The position numbers and the translations under genes were made by a program. The notes beneath the pieces were generated by a model. That model saw nothing but the letters and a program-made list of their open reading frames with translations, had not been told where the DNA came from and did no database searches. A stretch of 64,000 nucleotides of DNA from Caulobacteraceae bacterium (GTDB lineage: Bacteria; Pseudomonadota; Alphaproteobacteria; Caulobacterales; Caulobacteraceae): contig JAIESL010000002.1 in NCBI GenBank assembly GCA_019746095.1, positions 100,603 to 164,602 of the forward strand, given 5' to 3'. Within the stretch, counting starts at the first letter, position 1; each line of letters starts with the position of its first letter. Shown piece by piece: positions 14,361 through 21,192 of the stretch.

Positions 14361-14465
14361 GAGGGGCGAGGGGCGAGGGTCGAGGGGTGAGTGGGGAGGG
14401 ACGTCTCCCGCCTCGCTGACAGGGCTTCACCGACACTGGCACCTCGCCTCTCGACCCTCTTGACC
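14361..14465. repeat. Heptamer-armed hairpin element A: (GAGGGGC/GAGGGTC)n ... (CCTCGCC/CCTCGAC)n
   Basis: Five degenerate heptamers at 14361-14395; complementary arm at 14442-14465 (15/17 match). Confidence 0.75.
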
Positions 14466-14468
14466 GTG

Positions 14469-14488
14469 CCACTGTTACAGCATAGTGG
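14469..14488. promoter_or_regulatory. Candidate YerC/TrpR-like operator
   Basis: CCACT-N10-AGTGG palindrome 7 bp before the yerC ATG. Confidence 0.4.
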
Positions 14489-14495
14489 AACGCGC

Positions 14496-14816
14496 ATGAA
14501 CGACACCCTGCCCCCCAAGGCCGTGCACAAGGCGGCCGACGACCGGCTCGCCCTCTATGACGCCCTGCTGTGTCTGAAGACCCGCGAGGAGCTGGACGCC
14601 TTTCTCGCCGACCTGTGCACGCCGTCGGAACTTCGGGCCTTCGCCGAGCGCTGGGCCGTGGCGCGCCTGCTGGACGAGCAGGTGCATTCCTACCGGGAGA
14701 TCGCCGCCGAGGCCCGGGCCAGCCCGACCACCGTCGTGCGGGTCGCCCGCTTCCTCAAGGAAATGCCGCACCAAGGCTATCGCCTGGTGCTGGACCGCCT
14801 GAAGACCAAAGCCTGA
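14496..14816 (+). CDS. TrpR-like YerC/YecD regulator heading the his operon
   Basis: FLADLCTPSEL....ERW.VARLL, SYREIA and TTV.RVARFL motifs. Confidence 0.9.
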   Translation: MNDTLPPKAVHKAADDRLALYDALLCLKTREELDAFLADLCTPSELRAFAERWAVARLLDEQVHSYREIAAEARASPTTVVRVARFLKEMPHQGYRLVLDRLKTKA

Positions 14817-14838: not shown

Positions 14839-15720
14839 ATGAGTACCGTCCAGGGTCGGCTGCGTATCGCCGTCCAGAAATCCGGCCGCCTGTCCGACCG
14901 CAGCCTCGACCTCGTCCGCGACGCGGGCCTGCGCGTGGTCAAGGGCAACAACGACCTGCTCTACCGGGTCGAGAACTATCCCATCGACCTGCTGCGCGTG
15001 CGCGACGACGATATCCCGACCTTTGTCGCCGACGGCGTCTGCGACCTCGGCATCGTCGGCGAGAATGTGCTGGAGGAGGTCCGCAACGGCGGCCCGACGG
15101 CCGAGGTTCTGATGCCGCTGGGCTTCGGCCGCTGCACCCTGAAGATCGCCGTCCCACCGACCCTCGACTACGCCGGCCCGACCTCGCTGGACGGCCTGCG
15201 CATCGCCACCTCCTATCCCAAGATCCTGCGTCGCTATCTGGATGCCCAGGGCGTGTCCGCCGACATCGTCACCATGCGCGGTGCGGTCGAGGTCGCCCCG
15301 CGGCTCAAGCTGGCCTCGGCCATCTGCGACCTCGTCTCGACCGGTGCCACCCTCGAGGCCAACGGTCTCGCCGCGAAGGAAACGGTGCTGGACAGCCAGG
15401 CCGTGCTGATCAAATCGCCGGTCGCCCCGGAGCCCGGCCTGCAGCACCTGCTCGACAGCATCATCGAACGGATGGCCGGAGTGGTGTCCTCGCAGGGGGC
15501 CAAATACGTCATGCTCAACGCCCCCCGCTCGGCCCTGGCCGAGATCACCGCCATCCTGCCCGGGGCCGGCGCGCCGACGGTCATGCCCCTGGCCGGCCGT
15601 GACGATGCCGTGGCCGTGCACGCCGTCTGTCAGGAGGCGGTCTTCTGGGAAACCCTGGAGCGGCTCAAGGCCGCGGGGGCTTCTGCCATTCTGGTCCTCC
15701 CGATCGAGAAGATGATGTGA
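14839..15720 (+). CDS. hisG: ATP phosphoribosyltransferase, long form
   Basis: IAVQKSGRL, IATSYP, GAVEVAP and DLVSTGATL motifs, plus C-terminal regulatory domain (PIEKM). Confidence 0.96.
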   Translation: MSTVQGRLRIAVQKSGRLSDRSLDLVRDAGLRVVKGNNDLLYRVENYPIDLLRVRDDDIPTFVADGVCDLGIVGENVLEEVRNGGPTAEVLMPLGFGRCTLKIAVPPTLDYAGPTSLDGLRIATSYPKILRRYLDAQGVSADIVTMRGAVEVAPRLKLASAICDLVSTGATLEANGLAAKETVLDSQAVLIKSPVAPEPGLQHLLDSIIERMAGVVSSQGAKYVMLNAPRSALAEITAILPGAGAPTVMPLAGRDDAVAVHAVCQEAVFWETLERLKAAGASAILVLPIEKMM

Positions 15721-17027
15721 TGAAACGCCTCGACTGGAGCACCCTCGACGCCGCCGGCCGCCGTGAGGCCCTGGCCCGTCCCCGCCGCCGCACCGAGGCG
15801 CGCGTCACCGATACGGTGCGCGAGATCATGGAGGATGTCCGTGACCGCGGCGGTCAGGCCGTGACCGACTGGAGCCTCAAGCTGGACGGCGCGCCCCCCC
15901 GGCGGCTTGAGCTGACGCCAGACCGCGTCGCCGCCGCCCGCGATGCCCTGCGCCCCGCCGACACCCGGTCGATCCGTATGGCGGCCGAGAACATCCGCAT
16001 CTTCCACGAGGCGACCCGCCCCGAGGACACGCCCGACGTCGAGATCATTCCCGGCGTCCGCTCGCGGCTGGTCTGGCGTCCCCTGCGCTCGGCAGGTCTC
16101 TATGTCCCCGGCGGCTCGGCCCCGCTGTTCTCCTCCCTGCTGATGCTGGCCATACCGGCCGCCGTGGCCGGTGTCGGCCGCCGCGTCGCCGTCACCCCGC
16201 CGTCTGCCTCGGGCGAGCCGCACCCGGCCATGATCTTCGCCGCCGCCGAAGCCGGTCTCGATGAACTCTGGCTGATCGGCGGGGCCCAGGCCATCGCCGC
16301 CCTCACCTTCGGCGCCGCGCTGGAAGACGGGATCATCGCCCCCTGTGACAAGCTGTTCGGACCCGGCAATGCCTGGGTCGCCGAGGCCAAGAAACAGGCC
16401 TCGAACCTGCCCGGCGGACCCGCCGTCGACATGCCCGCCGGCCCGTCGGAACTGCTGGTCATCGCCGACCGCGACGCCGATCCGGAAATCGCCGCCGCCG
16501 ACCTGCTCAGCCAGGCCGAACACGACGCCGACGCCCAGGTCATCCTGGTCTCGGAAAGCCGCGCCAATATCGACGCCATCCTCGCCGAGGTGGACCGCCA
16601 GCTCGAAACCCTGCCCCGGGCCGACATCGCCCGCGCCTCGCTCGCCGAGGGTCGCGCCATCCGCGTGCGCGATGTGGCGGAGGCCTGCGAGGTAGCCAAT
16701 CTCTATGCGCCGGAACACCTGGCCCTGCAGACCGTCGAGCCCGACCGGCTGGTCGAGCGTATCACCGCCGCCGGAGCGGTGTTCGTCGGGGCCTTCGCCG
16801 CCGAGACCCTGGGCGACTATGCCGCCGGTCCCAGCCACGTCCTGCCCACCGACGGAGCCGCCCGCACCATGGGCGGTGTCATCACCGCCAGCTTCATGAC
16901 CTCCATGTCGGTCCAGGTCGTGACCGAGGCCGGGGCCGCCGCCCTGGCCCCGGTCGCCGCCCGCCTGGCCCGGCTGGAAGGCCTCGAGGCCCACGCCCGC
17001 GCGGCGGATCTGAGGGCCGGCGAATGA
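15717..17027 (+). CDS. hisD: Histidinol dehydrogenase (start 15717 or 15720)
   Basis: YVPGG, GPGN.WV, DMPAGPSE, DLLSQAEHD and GDYAAGPSHVLPT motifs. Confidence 0.96.
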   Translation: MMKRLDWSTLDAAGRREALARPRRRTEARVTDTVREIMEDVRDRGGQAVTDWSLKLDGAPPRRLELTPDRVAAARDALRPADTRSIRMAAENIRIFHEATRPEDTPDVEIIPGVRSRLVWRPLRSAGLYVPGGSAPLFSSLLMLAIPAAVAGVGRRVAVTPPSASGEPHPAMIFAAAEAGLDELWLIGGAQAIAALTFGAALEDGIIAPCDKLFGPGNAWVAEAKKQASNLPGGPAVDMPAGPSELLVIADRDADPEIAAADLLSQAEHDADAQVILVSESRANIDAILAEVDRQLETLPRADIARASLAEGRAIRVRDVAEACEVANLYAPEHLALQTVEPDRLVERITAAGAVFVGAFAAETLGDYAAGPSHVLPTDGAARTMGGVITASFMTSMSVQVVTEAGAAALAPVAARLARLEGLEAHARAADLRAGE

Positions 17028-18460
17028 ACAACCTTCCGGCCCCCTTCCCGCCACTGGTCTCCGGCGGTGACGGCCTCGACCGCTACCCGGCCGAGCCCCA
17101 CGCCCTCGCCGCCCGCATGGCCCAGGTCTATGGCGTCACCGCCGACAGCGTCCTGCCGGTGCGCGGCCTGACCCACGGGCTGGAACTGGTCTTCCGCCTC
17201 GCCGCCCGCGACGGCCTGCGCGTCGAGGCCCCGGATGCCGAACCTTACCGGGCCCTCGCCGCCCTCTACGCCACGCCCGCCGCCGGAGCCGTGACCGGCG
17301 CCGTCATCCTCCGCGCCCTCGGCTCGCCCGAGGCCGTGGCCGAGATGGCCGGACGGATCGCCCCCGCCCTGCTGGTCATCGACGAGGGCATGGCCGAGTT
17401 CGCCGACGCTGCCTCCGCCGCGACCGCGATCCGGGATCACGCCAATCTGATCGTCCTGCGCAGCCTGTCGCTGGCCCATGGCCTGGCCGGTGCCCGCGTC
17501 GGCGCCGCCCTCGGCCAGCCCGAAACACTGGCCCGCCTCGCCGCCGTGCTGGAGCCCTGGGCCCTGCCCGAGGTCTCCATCCGTCTCGCCCTGCAGGCCC
17601 TCGACCCCTCCCGCATGATGGAGACCACGGCCCGGATCGCCCTCGTCCGTTCGGAACGGGACCGCCTTATCAAGGCCCTGTCCCGTGAGATGGTCATCGA
17701 GCCCGGCTTCGGCCCCGTGATCATGGCCCGTCCCGCCGATCCGGATGCGGTTCTCTCTGCCCTCGCCCGTTTCGGCCTTGTCGGCGAACGGTCGCACGAC
17801 CGCCTGCGCCTGCCGGTCTCCGCCAGGGCCGAGGTCAATGACCGGCTCCTGGCCGCCCTCGGCCTCGGCACCGCATCCGGCCGCATCCACCGCACCGGCG
17901 AGGCCGTCCGCGATACCAGGGAGACGCGCATCGTCTGCGCCGTCGACCTCGACGCGGCCGGGCCCGTCTCGATCGCCACGGACGTCGGCTTCTTCGACCA
18001 CATGCTGGAGCAGGTCGCAGCCCACGGCGGCTTCTCCCTGCGCCTGTCCTGCGAAGGCGACCTGCACACCGATCCGCACCACACCATCGAGGACTCGGCC
18101 ATCGCCCTCGGTCAGGCCCTGAAACAGGCGTTGGGCGAGCGTCGCGGCATCGCCCGCTACGGCTTCGTCCTGCCCATGGACGAGGCCAATGCCAGCGTCT
18201 CCATCGACCTGTCCGGCCGCCCCTTCCCGGTCTTCGAGGGGACGTTCGCGACCCCCTTCATCGGCGACTACCGAACCGACCTGACGGCCCATGTCTTCCG
18301 CTCGCTGGCCGAACACCTCGGCGCGGCCATCCATGTCTCGGTCACCGGCGAGGACGACCATCACAAGACCGAGGCCGTCTACAAGGCCTTCGGCCGCGCC
18401 CTGCGTCAGGCCATCCGCGTCGAGGGCGACGTCGTGCCCTCGACCAAGGGTGTGCTGTGA
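17024..18460 (+). CDS. hisB: Fusion of a degenerate HisC-like aminotransferase domain to imidazoleglycerol-phosphate dehydratase
   Basis: C-terminal IGPD motifs FFDHML, DPHHTIED and DDHHKTEAVYKAFGRAL; N-terminal class I/II aminotransferase remnant (RYP, IDE, RSLSLAHGLAG.RVG). Confidence 0.9.
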   Translation: MNNLPAPFPPLVSGGDGLDRYPAEPHALAARMAQVYGVTADSVLPVRGLTHGLELVFRLAARDGLRVEAPDAEPYRALAALYATPAAGAVTGAVILRALGSPEAVAEMAGRIAPALLVIDEGMAEFADAASAATAIRDHANLIVLRSLSLAHGLAGARVGAALGQPETLARLAAVLEPWALPEVSIRLALQALDPSRMMETTARIALVRSERDRLIKALSREMVIEPGFGPVIMARPADPDAVLSALARFGLVGERSHDRLRLPVSARAEVNDRLLAALGLGTASGRIHRTGEAVRDTRETRIVCAVDLDAAGPVSIATDVGFFDHMLEQVAAHGGFSLRLSCEGDLHTDPHHTIEDSAIALGQALKQALGERRGIARYGFVLPMDEANASVSIDLSGRPFPVFEGTFATPFIGDYRTDLTAHVFRSLAEHLGAAIHVSVTGEDDHHKTEAVYKAFGRALRQAIRVEGDVVPSTKGVL

Positions 18461-19059
18461 GCGAGGTCACCGTTCTCGCCTATGGTGCCGGCAACACCGC
18501 CTCGGTCCGGTTCGCGCTGGAGCGGCTGGGGGCCACCGTGCGCCTGACGGATGACCCCGCCGCAGTCACCGAGGCCGAACGGCTGATCCTGCCCGGGGTC
18601 GGGGCGGCCGCCTATGCCATGGCCCGCCTGTCCGCCCTCGGCCTCGTCGAGCCCCTCCGCGCCTTTCCGCGTCCCCTGCTCGGTGTCTGTCTGGGCCAGC
18701 AGCTGCTGTTCGAGACCAGCGAGGAGGGCGAACCCGTGCCCCTGCTCGGCCTGATCCCCGGGGCCGTCCGCCGCCTCGAGCCCGGCCCCGGCCTGACCGT
18801 ACCGCATATGGGCTGGTCGCGCCTGACCGCCGACCGGTCCGACCCCCTGCTCGAGGGGATCGCGGACGGTGCCTATGCCTATTTCGTCCACGGCTTCGTC
18901 TGCCCCGAGGGGCCCGCCACCCTGGCCCGCGCCGACTACGGCGGCCCGGTCCCGGCCATGGTCCGCAGCGGCCATCGCTGGGGCTGCCAGTTCCACCCCG
19001 AGCGCTCGGCCGCCACCGGCGCCCGGATCCTGCGCAACTTCCTGGAGCTCCCCGCGTGA
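18457..19059 (+). CDS. hisH: Imidazole glycerol phosphate synthase, glutaminase subunit
   Basis: LPGVG, GVCLGQQ, VPHMGW and QFHPERS motifs. Confidence 0.95.
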   Translation: MSEVTVLAYGAGNTASVRFALERLGATVRLTDDPAAVTEAERLILPGVGAAAYAMARLSALGLVEPLRAFPRPLLGVCLGQQLLFETSEEGEPVPLLGLIPGAVRRLEPGPGLTVPHMGWSRLTADRSDPLLEGIADGAYAYFVHGFVCPEGPATLARADYGGPVPAMVRSGHRWGCQFHPERSAATGARILRNFLELPA

Positions 19060-19793
19060 TCGTCTATCCCGCCATCGACCTGAAGGGCGGCATCTGCGTG
19101 CGGCTGATGCATGGCCGCTTTGATCAGGTCACACGCTATGACGACGATCCCGCCGCCCGCCTCGCCGCCTTCGCCGCCGCGGGCGCGACCTGGGCCCATA
19201 TCGTCGATCTCGACGGCGCCGAGGCCGGGCGCGCGGTCCAGCACGCCCTGATCGGAAGCCTGGCCCGCGCCGTGGACATCCGCATCCAGTCCGGCGGCGG
19301 GGTCCGCTCCGCCGACGATGTCGCGGCCCTGATCGACGCCGGTGTGGCGCGGGTCGTGGTCGGCTCGCTGGCCGTGTCGCAGCCGGAGACCGTGGCCGAC
19401 TGGCTGCGTCGCTTCGGCCCCGACCGCATCACCCTGGCCATCGACGTAAAGGCCGACGGCGACCGCTGGATCCCGGCTCTCAAGGGCTGGACCGAGGCCG
19501 CCGGGGTCGACCTCTGGACCGCGCTCGACCGCTTCCCGCCCAACCTCGCCCGCCACCTGCTGGTCACCGATGTCGGCCGCGACGGGGCCCTGACCGGCCC
19601 CAATCTCGACCTGCTGGGCGAGATCATCCGCCGCCGTCCCGACCTGAACGTCCAGGCCTCGGGCGGTGTCGCCTCGGTCGCCGACCTCACCGCTGCCGCC
19701 GCCCTCGGCTGCCACGGAGCCATCGTCGGCCGCGCCCTCTACGAGAACCGCTTCACCCTCGAAGAGGCCCTTGTGGCCGAAGGAGCGGCATGA
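19056..19793 (+). CDS. hisA: ProFAR isomerase
   Basis: PAIDL, HIVDLDGA, GGGVR, TDVGRDG and SGGV motifs. Confidence 0.95.
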   Translation: MIVYPAIDLKGGICVRLMHGRFDQVTRYDDDPAARLAAFAAAGATWAHIVDLDGAEAGRAVQHALIGSLARAVDIRIQSGGGVRSADDVAALIDAGVARVVVGSLAVSQPETVADWLRRFGPDRITLAIDVKADGDRWIPALKGWTEAAGVDLWTALDRFPPNLARHLLVTDVGRDGALTGPNLDLLGEIIRRRPDLNVQASGGVASVADLTAAAALGCHGAIVGRALYENRFTLEEALVAEGAA

Positions 19794-20557
19794 CCGCGCG
19801 CCGCATCATCCCCTGCCTCGACGTCCGGGACGGCCGGGTGGTCAAGGGCGTCCGCTTCGAGGGGCACGTCGACATGGGTGACGCCGCCGACCTCGCCGCC
19901 CGCTACCGCGACCAGGGTGCCGATGAACTGGTCTTCTATGACATCACCGCCAGCCCCGAGGGCCGGACCCTCGACTATGGCTGGGTCCGCGACATCGCCC
20001 GTCTGCTCGACATCCCCTTCAGCGTCGCCGGCGGGATCCGTTCGGTCGACCAGGCCGCCCTCTGCCTCGACCACGGGGCCGACAAGGTGTCCATCAACTC
20101 CCCCGCTCTCGAACGCCCCGACCTCATCGGCGAGATGGCCGGTCGCTTCGGCAGCCAGTGCGTCGTGGTCGGCGTCGACTCCCGCCGCTCGGGCGAGGAC
20201 TGGGTCGTGCACCAGTATACCGGCGACCCCACCGCCAGCCGCGCCGCCGGTCGCCGCACCCTCGACTGGATCACCGAGGCCCAGGGTCTCGGCGCCGGCG
20301 AGATCGTGCTCAACTGCATGGACGAGGACGGCGTTCGCCGCGGCTACGACATCGCCCAGCTGGCCGCCGCGCGCGCCCTTCTGACCATCCCGCTGGTCGC
20401 CTCGGGCGGGGCCGGTGCGGCCTCGCATTTCCGTGACGTCTTCGAACAGGCCGACGTCTCCGGTGCCCTCGCCGCCAGTGTCTTTCACACCGGGACCCTG
20501 ACGATTCCCGATCTCAAGGCGTTCCTATCGGAGTCCGGACAGGAGATGAGACTGTGA
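19790..20557 (+). CDS. hisF: Imidazole glycerol phosphate synthase, cyclase subunit
   Basis: RRIIPCLDV, ADELVFYDITAS, DKVSINS, DEDG...GYD and ALAASVFH motifs. Confidence 0.96.
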   Translation: MTARRIIPCLDVRDGRVVKGVRFEGHVDMGDAADLAARYRDQGADELVFYDITASPEGRTLDYGWVRDIARLLDIPFSVAGGIRSVDQAALCLDHGADKVSINSPALERPDLIGEMAGRFGSQCVVVGVDSRRSGEDWVVHQYTGDPTASRAAGRRTLDWITEAQGLGAGEIVLNCMDEDGVRRGYDIAQLAAARALLTIPLVASGGAGAASHFRDVFEQADVSGALAASVFHTGTLTIPDLKAFLSESGQEMRL

Positions 20558-21192
20558 TCGACCCCGCCACCCTCGATTTCGCCAAGTCAGGCGGCCTGAT
20601 CCCGGTCGTCGTCCAGGATGCCGCCACCCTGCAGGTGCTGACGCTCGCCTACATGGATCGCGCCGCCCTGGATGAAACCCTCGCATCCGGCGAGGCCACC
20701 TTCTTCTCGCGCTCGCGCGGCGGGCGCTGGCGCAAGGGCGAGACCTCGGGCGACCGCCTGCACCTCGTCTCCATCACCCCAGACTGCGACGCCGACTCCC
20801 TCGTCCTCAAGGTCCGCCCTGTCGGCCATGCCTGCCACCTGAACCGCATCAGCTGCTTCGGCGCGGAGGACGCGCCCGGACTCGGCCGTCTGGCGCGACT
20901 GGAAGCCACCATCGCCGAGCGCGCCGCCGCTGATCCTTCTGAAAGCTGGACCGCGCGCCTGCTCGCGGAGGGCGTCAAACGCGTCGCCCAGAAGGTCGGG
21001 GAAGAGGGGGTGGAGACCGCCCTCGCCGGCGTCGCGGGCCCGGATTCGGAACTGGCATCGGAAGCCGCGGATCTGGTCTACCATCTGATGGTGCTGCTGC
21101 GCGCCCGTCACATGGTGTTTCAGGACGTCCTCGACGTCTTGGCGCAGCGCGCGGAAGCGGCCAGACACAACCCCGGTCCAGCCGGGACCTGA
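20554..21192 (+). CDS. hisIE: Bifunctional phosphoribosyl-AMP cyclohydrolase/phosphoribosyl-ATP pyrophosphatase
   Basis: W.KGETSG, DCDAD, ACH....SCF, then KVGEEGVE and EAADLVYH motifs. Confidence 0.95.
   Translation: MIDPATLDFAKSGGLIPVVVQDAATLQVLTLAYMDRAALDETLASGEATFFSRSRGGRWRKGETSGDRLHLVSITPDCDADSLVLKVRPVGHACHLNRISCFGAEDAPGLGRLARLEATIAERAAADPSESWTARLLAEGVKRVAQKVGEEGVETALAGVAGPDSELASEAADLVYHLMVLLRARHMVFQDVLDVLAQRAEAARHNPGPAGT

Follow-up and report, generated by a model that had tools for sequence, protein, structure and literature searches.

A window of 64,000 nucleotides from a Caulobacteraceae bacterium (GenBank assembly GCA_019746095.1, contig JAIESL010000002.1, positions 100,603 to 164,602, forward strand) was analysed, and the study is concerned with one gene of its histidine operon. 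In this gene, designated psiHisC::hisB (Table 1), a shortened relative of histidinol-phosphate aminotransferase (HisC) is joined to imidazoleglycerol-phosphate dehydratase (IGPD, the product of hisB). The HisC-derived N-terminal domain (N-domain) is predicted to be catalytically dead and no longer able to transaminate, since the Schiff-base lysine, the NPNNPTG/Asn157 segment, Tyr187 and the N-terminal arm of HisC are lost. The gene is the sole IGPD gene of this Brevundimonas genome (single PF00475 match; 3.05 Mb, 99.7% complete). Judged from sequence, the N-domain is a maintained pseudo-enzyme domain of the organism's only IGPD. The same lesion was found in species representatives of the genus Brevundimonas (78 species, the set used below unless another is named) and in further Caulobacteraceae.

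Active site and fold of the N-terminal domain

The N-domain was compared with aminotransferase profiles and solved structures. The Pfam model Aminotran_1_2 (PF00155) matched partially, at residues 114-222. The NCBIfam hisC model TIGR01141 gave 90.5 bits, one third of its cut-off of 276.55, with the best stretch at profile positions 165-309 of 349. The best sequence match in the PDB was E. coli HisC (1fg3, E 2e-17), whose residues 51-99 and 178-320 pair with residues 17-64 and 114-253 of the window protein. In this alignment Leu150 stands at the position of Lys214, which forms the Schiff base with pyridoxal 5'-phosphate (PLP), and the corresponding motif reads LRSLSLAHGLAGARVG in the window protein. 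Asp120 is aligned to Asp184 and Met123 to Tyr187, and Ser147, Ser149 and Arg158 correspond to Thr211, Ser213 and Arg222.

Further elements of the active site are missing from the dead forms. The DEAY motif of HisC reads DEGM or DEGL in them, with loss of Tyr187, and the N-terminal arm is absent throughout. The window protein is shorter than intact relatives by about 35 residues at the N-terminus and lacks the NPNNPTG segment; the Asn157 segment is deleted, and the chain begins at the equivalent of the NENPF motif. Asp120-Glu121 do not vary among the aligned dead forms, which come from Brevundimonas, Asticcacaulis and two other Caulobacteraceae genera (g10, g20), and are shared by the intact fusion in alignment A1.

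For structure prediction, AlphaFold2 was supplied with an alignment of 54 sequences. The model had a mean predicted local distance difference test score of 85.7 and a predicted template modelling (TM) score of 0.78; residues 30-285 were confident and the first ~24 disordered. In Foldseek searches of the PDB, HisC structures of E. coli and Klebsiella matched the N-terminal half with TM scores of 0.66-0.71 at ~25% identity. As modelled, the N-domain is a reduced yet folded fold-type I aminotransferase.

Continued activity as an aminotransferase or another PLP enzyme, by way of a different lysine, was considered. Asp120, the phosphate-binding Ser-x-Ser and the arginine are retained, which speaks for it. 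Lys217, however, is the sole lysine among the 288 residues of the domain in the window protein, and across the 78 species no lysine of the N-domain is conserved: the best column, that of Lys217, holds Lys in 54% and four species have a lysine-free domain. A substitute Schiff-base lysine was ruled out on these grounds. With the NPNNPTG/Asn157 segment, Tyr187 and the arm absent as well, and with the hisC model score at a third of its cut-off, this alternative is highly improbable.

The C-terminal half is intact. PF00475 matched residues 319-460 with E 2.8e-57 and 193.3 bits (cut-off 27), and NF002111 scored 235.7 bits (cut-off 231). Both histidine-rich metal motifs, HHTIED and DDHHKTE, are present, and comparison with solved IGPD structures gave TM scores of ~0.9 (Foldseek, PDB). 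As the sole IGPD match in a genome that is 99.7% complete, this half should act as the organism's IGPD. No in-frame ATG, GTG or TTG occurs from codon 235 to 326 of the fused gene, so the IGPD is produced solely as a fusion; separate translation from an internal start was rejected for this gene.

Selection and distribution

Selection was measured with codon models (maximum likelihood, GY+F3X4, fixed tree) in the 36 Brevundimonas species with all parts present. The ratio of non-synonymous to synonymous rates (omega) was 0.068 for the dead domain, 0.035 for IGPD, 0.048 for hisD and 0.079 for hisH, and it was even along the dead domain (0.046-0.073 in six sub-regions). With gamma rates and 78 sequences (77 species representatives and the window), the dead domain had an omega of 0.092 and IGPD one of 0.035. 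Pairwise estimates by the method of Nei and Gojobori (NG86) were 0.18-0.40 for the N-domain and 0.06-0.33 for IGPD. An omega of 0.068 excludes a neutral in-frame spacer for Brevundimonas. The dead domain is under purifying selection, about as strong as that on a functional enzyme of its operon.

Conservation was also assessed by residue. Sixteen N-domain residues were checked and are invariant in the 78 species, in which domain length is constant within a few residues; Asp120, Ser147, Ser149 and Arg158 are among the invariant positions. His51, Glu54, Glu177, Pro231 and Arg274 are conserved across Brevundimonas, g10 and Asticcacaulis and differ in intact fusions. Such conservation in the dead forms alone points to a new selective regime.

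The fusion was present in 12 of 12 sampled Brevundimonas genomes. A scan of species-representative genomes yielded 80 loci, nearly all from named Brevundimonas or from metagenome-assembled genomes (MAGs) labelled Brevundimonas or Caulobacteraceae, and including B. diminuta, B. alba, B. bullata, B. vancanneytii, B. lenta and B. basaltis. All 78 complete Brevundimonas open reading frames (ORFs) among the species representatives are open, with Leu at the lysine site in 72 and Met in 6. In protein databases, more than 120 entries of near-identical length were found; full-length homologues had 476-480 aa and 82-92% identity and were named Brevundimonas. A family-wide genome search recovered lysine-less fusions also in Asticcacaulis (Phe or Tyr at the site; including A. 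excentricus ADU12500.1), in g10 (Gly or Leu) and in g20 (Leu). An assembly artefact or strain-specific decay was rejected, the fusion being in every Brevundimonas genome sampled.

A preliminary description of this DNA, made from the letters alone, had read the first ~285 residues as HisC-like with a lysine-to-leucine change at Leu150 and without NPNNPTG. It had further described an uninterrupted fusion to an intact IGPD domain, overlaps with hisD and hisH, and host-like codon usage, and had proposed a dead pseudo-enzyme kept on the IGPD, with a possible structural, regulatory or ligand-sensing role. The alignments to 1fg3 and to intact relatives agree with it on the active site. ORF and letters confirm the absence of a stop between the halves and both overlaps: the ATG of the fused gene overlaps the stop of hisD (ATGA, 17024-17027) and its TGA overlaps the GTG of hisH (GTGA, 18457-18460). 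The fraction of G and C at third codon positions is 0.889 in the N-domain and 0.84-0.92 in the adjoining his genes. The fusion and the loss of the lysine, which it had suggested following across Brevundimonas, were present in 78 of 78 species representatives, and the lysine is lost in Asticcacaulis too; omega measured on the N-domain indicates purifying selection. An intact hisC elsewhere in the genome was found as well. The proposal would have been contradicted by separate intact hisC and hisB genes at the locus in sister genomes or by a rescuing lysine, and neither was observed.

Database labels of the homologues vary. Many carry the label 'imidazoleglycerol-phosphate dehydratase / histidinol-phosphatase' or 'histidinol-phosphate aminotransferase/...' at JGI and plain HisB at NCBI, names that give no hint of a dead domain. 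For one MAG, NCBI lists a 202-aa record of the same gene beside the 491-aa product. The JGI histidinol-phosphatase label was apparently inherited through orthology with bifunctional HisB. Where pipelines assign aminotransferase or histidinol-phosphatase fusion names, proteins are credited with impossible activities.

Origin from HisC-IGPD fusions and reduced forms

Fusions with an intact HisC half were found in quantity. When 1.84 billion cluster representatives were searched exhaustively, many clusters of two-half HisC-IGPD proteins of 545-580 aa were recovered. A word-indexed search listed 120 close relatives of the intact form; those with an organism name were from Allosphingosinicella, Sphingomicrobium and 'Brevundimonas sp. 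2R-24' (UniRef name 'Multifunctional fusion protein'). Many clusters were metagenomic, and a search for names of the metagenomic clusters, intact and dead, yielded no taxa. Among 251 evenly sampled alphaproteobacterial genomes, full-length fusions occurred in five families outside Caulobacteraceae, and the majority of genomes had a stand-alone IGPD of ~200 aa. L030 of genus g8, the one intact fusion read at the DNA level, encodes 548 aa with NENPF, SPNNPTG, DEAY and LRTLSKAFGLAGARVG in its HisC half; it is also the one tested against the hisC cut-off, which it exceeds with 286.7 bits.

These proteins (PF00155 plus PF00475) share with the window protein the domain order, the linker before the RDT(K/R)ET start of IGPD and an IGPD of the same alphaproteobacterial clade, and L030 has the same ATGA start overlap. 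They differ from it in being 545-565 aa long and in keeping Lys214, NPNNPTG, DEAY and the N-terminal arm. Theirs is a bifunctional architecture, whereas the HisC half of the window protein, having lost the lysine and the other elements, fails in catalytic competence. A HAD phosphatase had been named by the preliminary description as the partner in known HisB fusions. This holds for the searchable literature, in which only hisNB, hisIE and hisHF fusions were found discussed and no description of a hisC-hisB fusion, its dead form or Brevundimonas hisB was found; it does not hold for databases, where intact HisC-IGPD fusions are abundant. The HisC-IGPD architecture itself is thus not unique, and the dead domain appears to descend from a widespread intact fusion that the preliminary description had missed. 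As far as the searches went, the parent bifunctional fusion is catalogued in sequence databases and no paper describing it was found. A metagenomic protein of 1001 aa (P0177) holds HisD, an intact HisC (SPNNPTG, DEAY, TFSKAMGLAGLRFG) and IGPD in one polypeptide and would unite three enzymes of the histidine pathway as a triple fusion.

Trees were used to place the dead forms. In a full-length tree, which included the decayed columns, the dead forms of Caulobacteraceae were one clade with a Shimodaira-Hasegawa-like approximate likelihood ratio test (SH-aLRT) value of 99. In a tree of IGPD only, intact and dead alphaproteobacterial forms fell into one clade (ultrafast bootstrap 91, SH-aLRT 85) with a poorly resolved backbone. 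A few dead forms stood beside intact ones in this tree, and a single dead clade was not rejected by the approximately unbiased test (p = 0.28). The dead form probably derives from intact HisC-IGPD fusions. The HisC half would therefore have been inactivated at least once, early, before the spread in Brevundimonas and Asticcacaulis, and probably again elsewhere.

The genome of the window has a stand-alone intact hisC on contig 79 (13696-14745; 301 bits, above cut-off). The same holds for 17 of 17 other genomes checked, that of the intact fusion included. With a stand-alone hisC in the same genomes, the fused HisC half is redundant. A HisN-type histidinol-phosphatase above its family cut-off is also present in the window's genome, so that with the separate hisC the pathway is complete without any activity of the N-domain. 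On the same evidence the N-domain was rejected as a substitute for a missing histidinol-phosphatase. The ancestor may have been a bifunctional HisC-IGPD fusion within a hisG-D-C::B-H-A-F-IE operon. Intact fusions persist in Sphingomonadales and a Brevundimonas-like genus, in genomes that also carry a stand-alone hisC. The redundant HisC half would then have lost the Schiff-base lysine, the NPNNPTG/Asn157 segment, Tyr187 and the N-terminal arm, and redundancy would be the obvious trigger of this decay. In g10 and g20, a third hisC above cut-off lies ~3.5 kb downstream of the dead fusion (Table 1), besides the stand-alone hisC elsewhere; it would sit near the end of the his cluster.

Shorter forms were also recovered. 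Large in-frame internal deletions, corresponding roughly to residues 60-140 of the window protein, occur in a 449-aa protein placed in Brevundimonas (L034, G081:C1) and in a 414-aa protein of g10 (L032, G010:C6). The genome of the former is 2.4 Mb and 100% complete, and its IGPD groups with those of g20 and the intact g8, not with other Brevundimonas. Two other alphaproteobacteria, one of them in the same order, have an N-terminal IGPD extension of ~190-210 aa with faint similarity only, to the C-terminal part of HisC (L117, G390:C1:2602800-2605600; L118, G252:C7:271000-274000). Each of these four reduced forms is the sole IGPD of its genome, and the fusion was the only IGPD in 9 of 9 other genomes checked besides that of the window. 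Sizes run from ~550 aa (intact) through 467-500 aa (dead) and 449 and 414 aa (deleted) to ~377-400 aa (remnants).

The deleted and remnant forms, each still the sole IGPD, keep alive the reading of the domain as a slowly decaying relic without a role. On this reading IGPD has neither a start codon nor a ribosome site of its own, and the domain stays in frame only since the cell would lose its one IGPD with any stop or frameshift. The lack of an IGPD start of its own within codons 235 to 326 fits such a relic, as do the decay series, the evolution of the dead-domain protein at about twice the rate of IGPD, and the suggestion from the IGPD-only tree that decay may have recurred. A neutral spacer, on the other hand, is expected to have an omega near 1. 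The value observed is that of a gene such as hisH and is uniform along the domain; the 16 checked residues and the domain length do not vary beyond a few residues of length, the predicted fold is confident and compact, and some residues are newly conserved in the dead forms alone. The relic is regarded as unlikely.

The forms together are a natural series from a bifunctional enzyme through a conserved pseudo-enzyme domain to eroded remnants, with cultured representatives of every stage (Brevundimonas diminuta, Asticcacaulis excentricus). They lend themselves to the study of why a catalytic domain that is redundant becomes entrenched and is not deleted, and of whether a scaffolding or channelling role was gained.

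Proposed role, related systems and operon context

At a probability of roughly 0.55, the N-domain is a non-catalytic module on which the IGPD half now depends and which serves the structure or assembly of the IGPD particle. This role, with its mechanism, is considered the most likely. The dead domain may aid the folding or solubility of IGPD, or it may use what was once the dimer interface of HisC to clamp adjacent subunits of the IGPD 24-mer. Since two subunits contribute to each HisC active site, dimerisation of the HisC halves must already occur on the particle of the intact fusion. Two points weigh against a structural module. Tyr21, Ser147, Ser149, Arg158 and Arg262, which belong to the cup for PLP phosphate and substrate phosphate in HisC, are invariant in Brevundimonas, which would be equally compatible with a ligand site that has been kept. 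Some forms, moreover, have lost the middle of the domain, and the module therefore seems to erode over long times.

A second possible function is that of a docking or channelling adaptor. The dead domain would pair with free HisC via the dimer interface and tether it to the IGPD particle, so that imidazole-acetol phosphate is handed straight to the next enzyme; or it would bind a phosphorylated intermediate and tune IGPD. IGPD and HisC catalyse consecutive steps of the histidine pathway. Tyr21 is the equivalent of HisC Tyr55, the residue donated to the active site of the partner, and like the cup residues Ser147, Ser149 and Arg158 and Arg262 it is invariant; omega of the dead domain is as low as that of a working enzyme. 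There is also a precedent, since a fold-type I subunit that is truncated, inactive and devoid of the lysine is required in a heteromer (PMC11726168). Tyr21 and Arg262 are, however, lost in Asticcacaulis and g10, no dead form has kept the N-terminal arm with which HisC wraps around its partner subunit, and the segment of the cofactor pocket with the ring-stacking residue and Asn157 is deleted in Brevundimonas. The adaptor is taken as the main, though tentative, alternative. Its fully worked form, in which the domain pairs with free HisC and places Tyr21 in the partner site, or holds a phosphorylated intermediate, with the IGPD 24-mer as channelling scaffold, is somewhat more doubtful still. If true, it would amount to a metabolon built from a pseudo-enzyme in a core amino-acid pathway, and interest in the domain would rise if it recruits HisC or binds intermediates.

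Three further known systems resemble the fused protein in part. HisZ is a dead histidyl-tRNA synthetase paralogue that acts as a separate subunit and allosteric regulator of short-form HisG. Like the N-domain, it is a pseudo-enzyme that was recruited in the histidine pathway and is maintained by selection; unlike HisZ systems, the window's genome uses long-form HisG, and the role of its domain is a proposed one. HisB (hisNB) of E. coli and other bacteria likewise has an N-domain of another histidine step fused to IGPD in a compact his operon, and the IGPD half of the window protein best matches the C-terminal half of the bifunctional HisB model: NF003937 matched only at profile positions 166-355, with 262.6 bits (cut-off 443). 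In contrast to the HAD histidinol-phosphatase-IGPD of hisNB, the window protein is without a HAD domain, its N-domain is aminotransferase-derived and inactive, and the phosphatase step falls to a separate HisN. The third system is the SerTA enzyme Ser4-Ser5 of Serratia sp. ATCC 39006, in which Ser4 is, like the N-domain, a retained fold-type I homologue without the catalytic lysine and terminal regions (PMC11726168). Ser4 is a separate polypeptide that forms an active heterotetramer with Ser5 (PMC11726168). The dead unit of the window, unlike Ser4, is fused to a different enzyme.

The operon is compact and lies on the + strand in the order hisG-D-(psiC::B)-H-A-F-IE. All flanking his genes exceed their NCBIfam cut-offs. 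Positions are collected in Table 1.

Table 1. Positions of the fused gene, its parts and neighbouring genes in the window, and of third hisC copies in other genomes
Feature	Position	Strand	Remarks and basis
psiHisC::hisB, fused gene	17024..18460	+	478 aa plus stop; ORF list, translation
N-domain, residues 1-288	17024..17887	+	shortened, predicted dead HisC-type (fold-type I, class II) aminotransferase; profile scores, PDB alignment, AlphaFold2/Foldseek, omega
Asp120-Glu121	17381..17386	+	equivalent to HisC Asp184-Glu185; PDB alignment
Leu150, CTG	17471..17473	+	site of the PLP Schiff-base lysine (E. coli HisC Lys214)
IGPD domain, residues 289-478	17888..18457	+	intact; PF00475, NF002111, Foldseek, omega
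YerC/YecD-family gene	14391..14816	+	TIGR02531, 63.6 bits
hisG	14839..15720	+	first operon gene; long form with C-terminal regulatory domain; TIGR00070, TIGR03455
hisD	15717..17027	+	TIGR00069, 443.9 bits
hisH	18457..19059	+	GTG start; TIGR01855, 194 bits
hisA	19056..19793	+	TIGR00007, above cut-off
hisF	19790..20557	+	TIGR00735, above cut-off
hisIE	20554..21192	+	NF002747, above cut-off
Third hisC copies (g10, g20)	G059:C97:18141-19193; G010:C6:70590-71642; G071:C37:217957-219018; G053:C39:38016-39077; G035:C60:6671-7708		above cut-off

Directly upstream of hisG, on the same strand, the window encodes a TrpR-related protein of the YerC/YecD family, with a score above the cut-off of its model. 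HisR, a regulator of the TrpR family, is reported to control his genes in Gram-positive bacteria (PMC9413887). By analogy, the YerC/YecD-family protein could be a comparable regulator of the his operon in an alphaproteobacterium.

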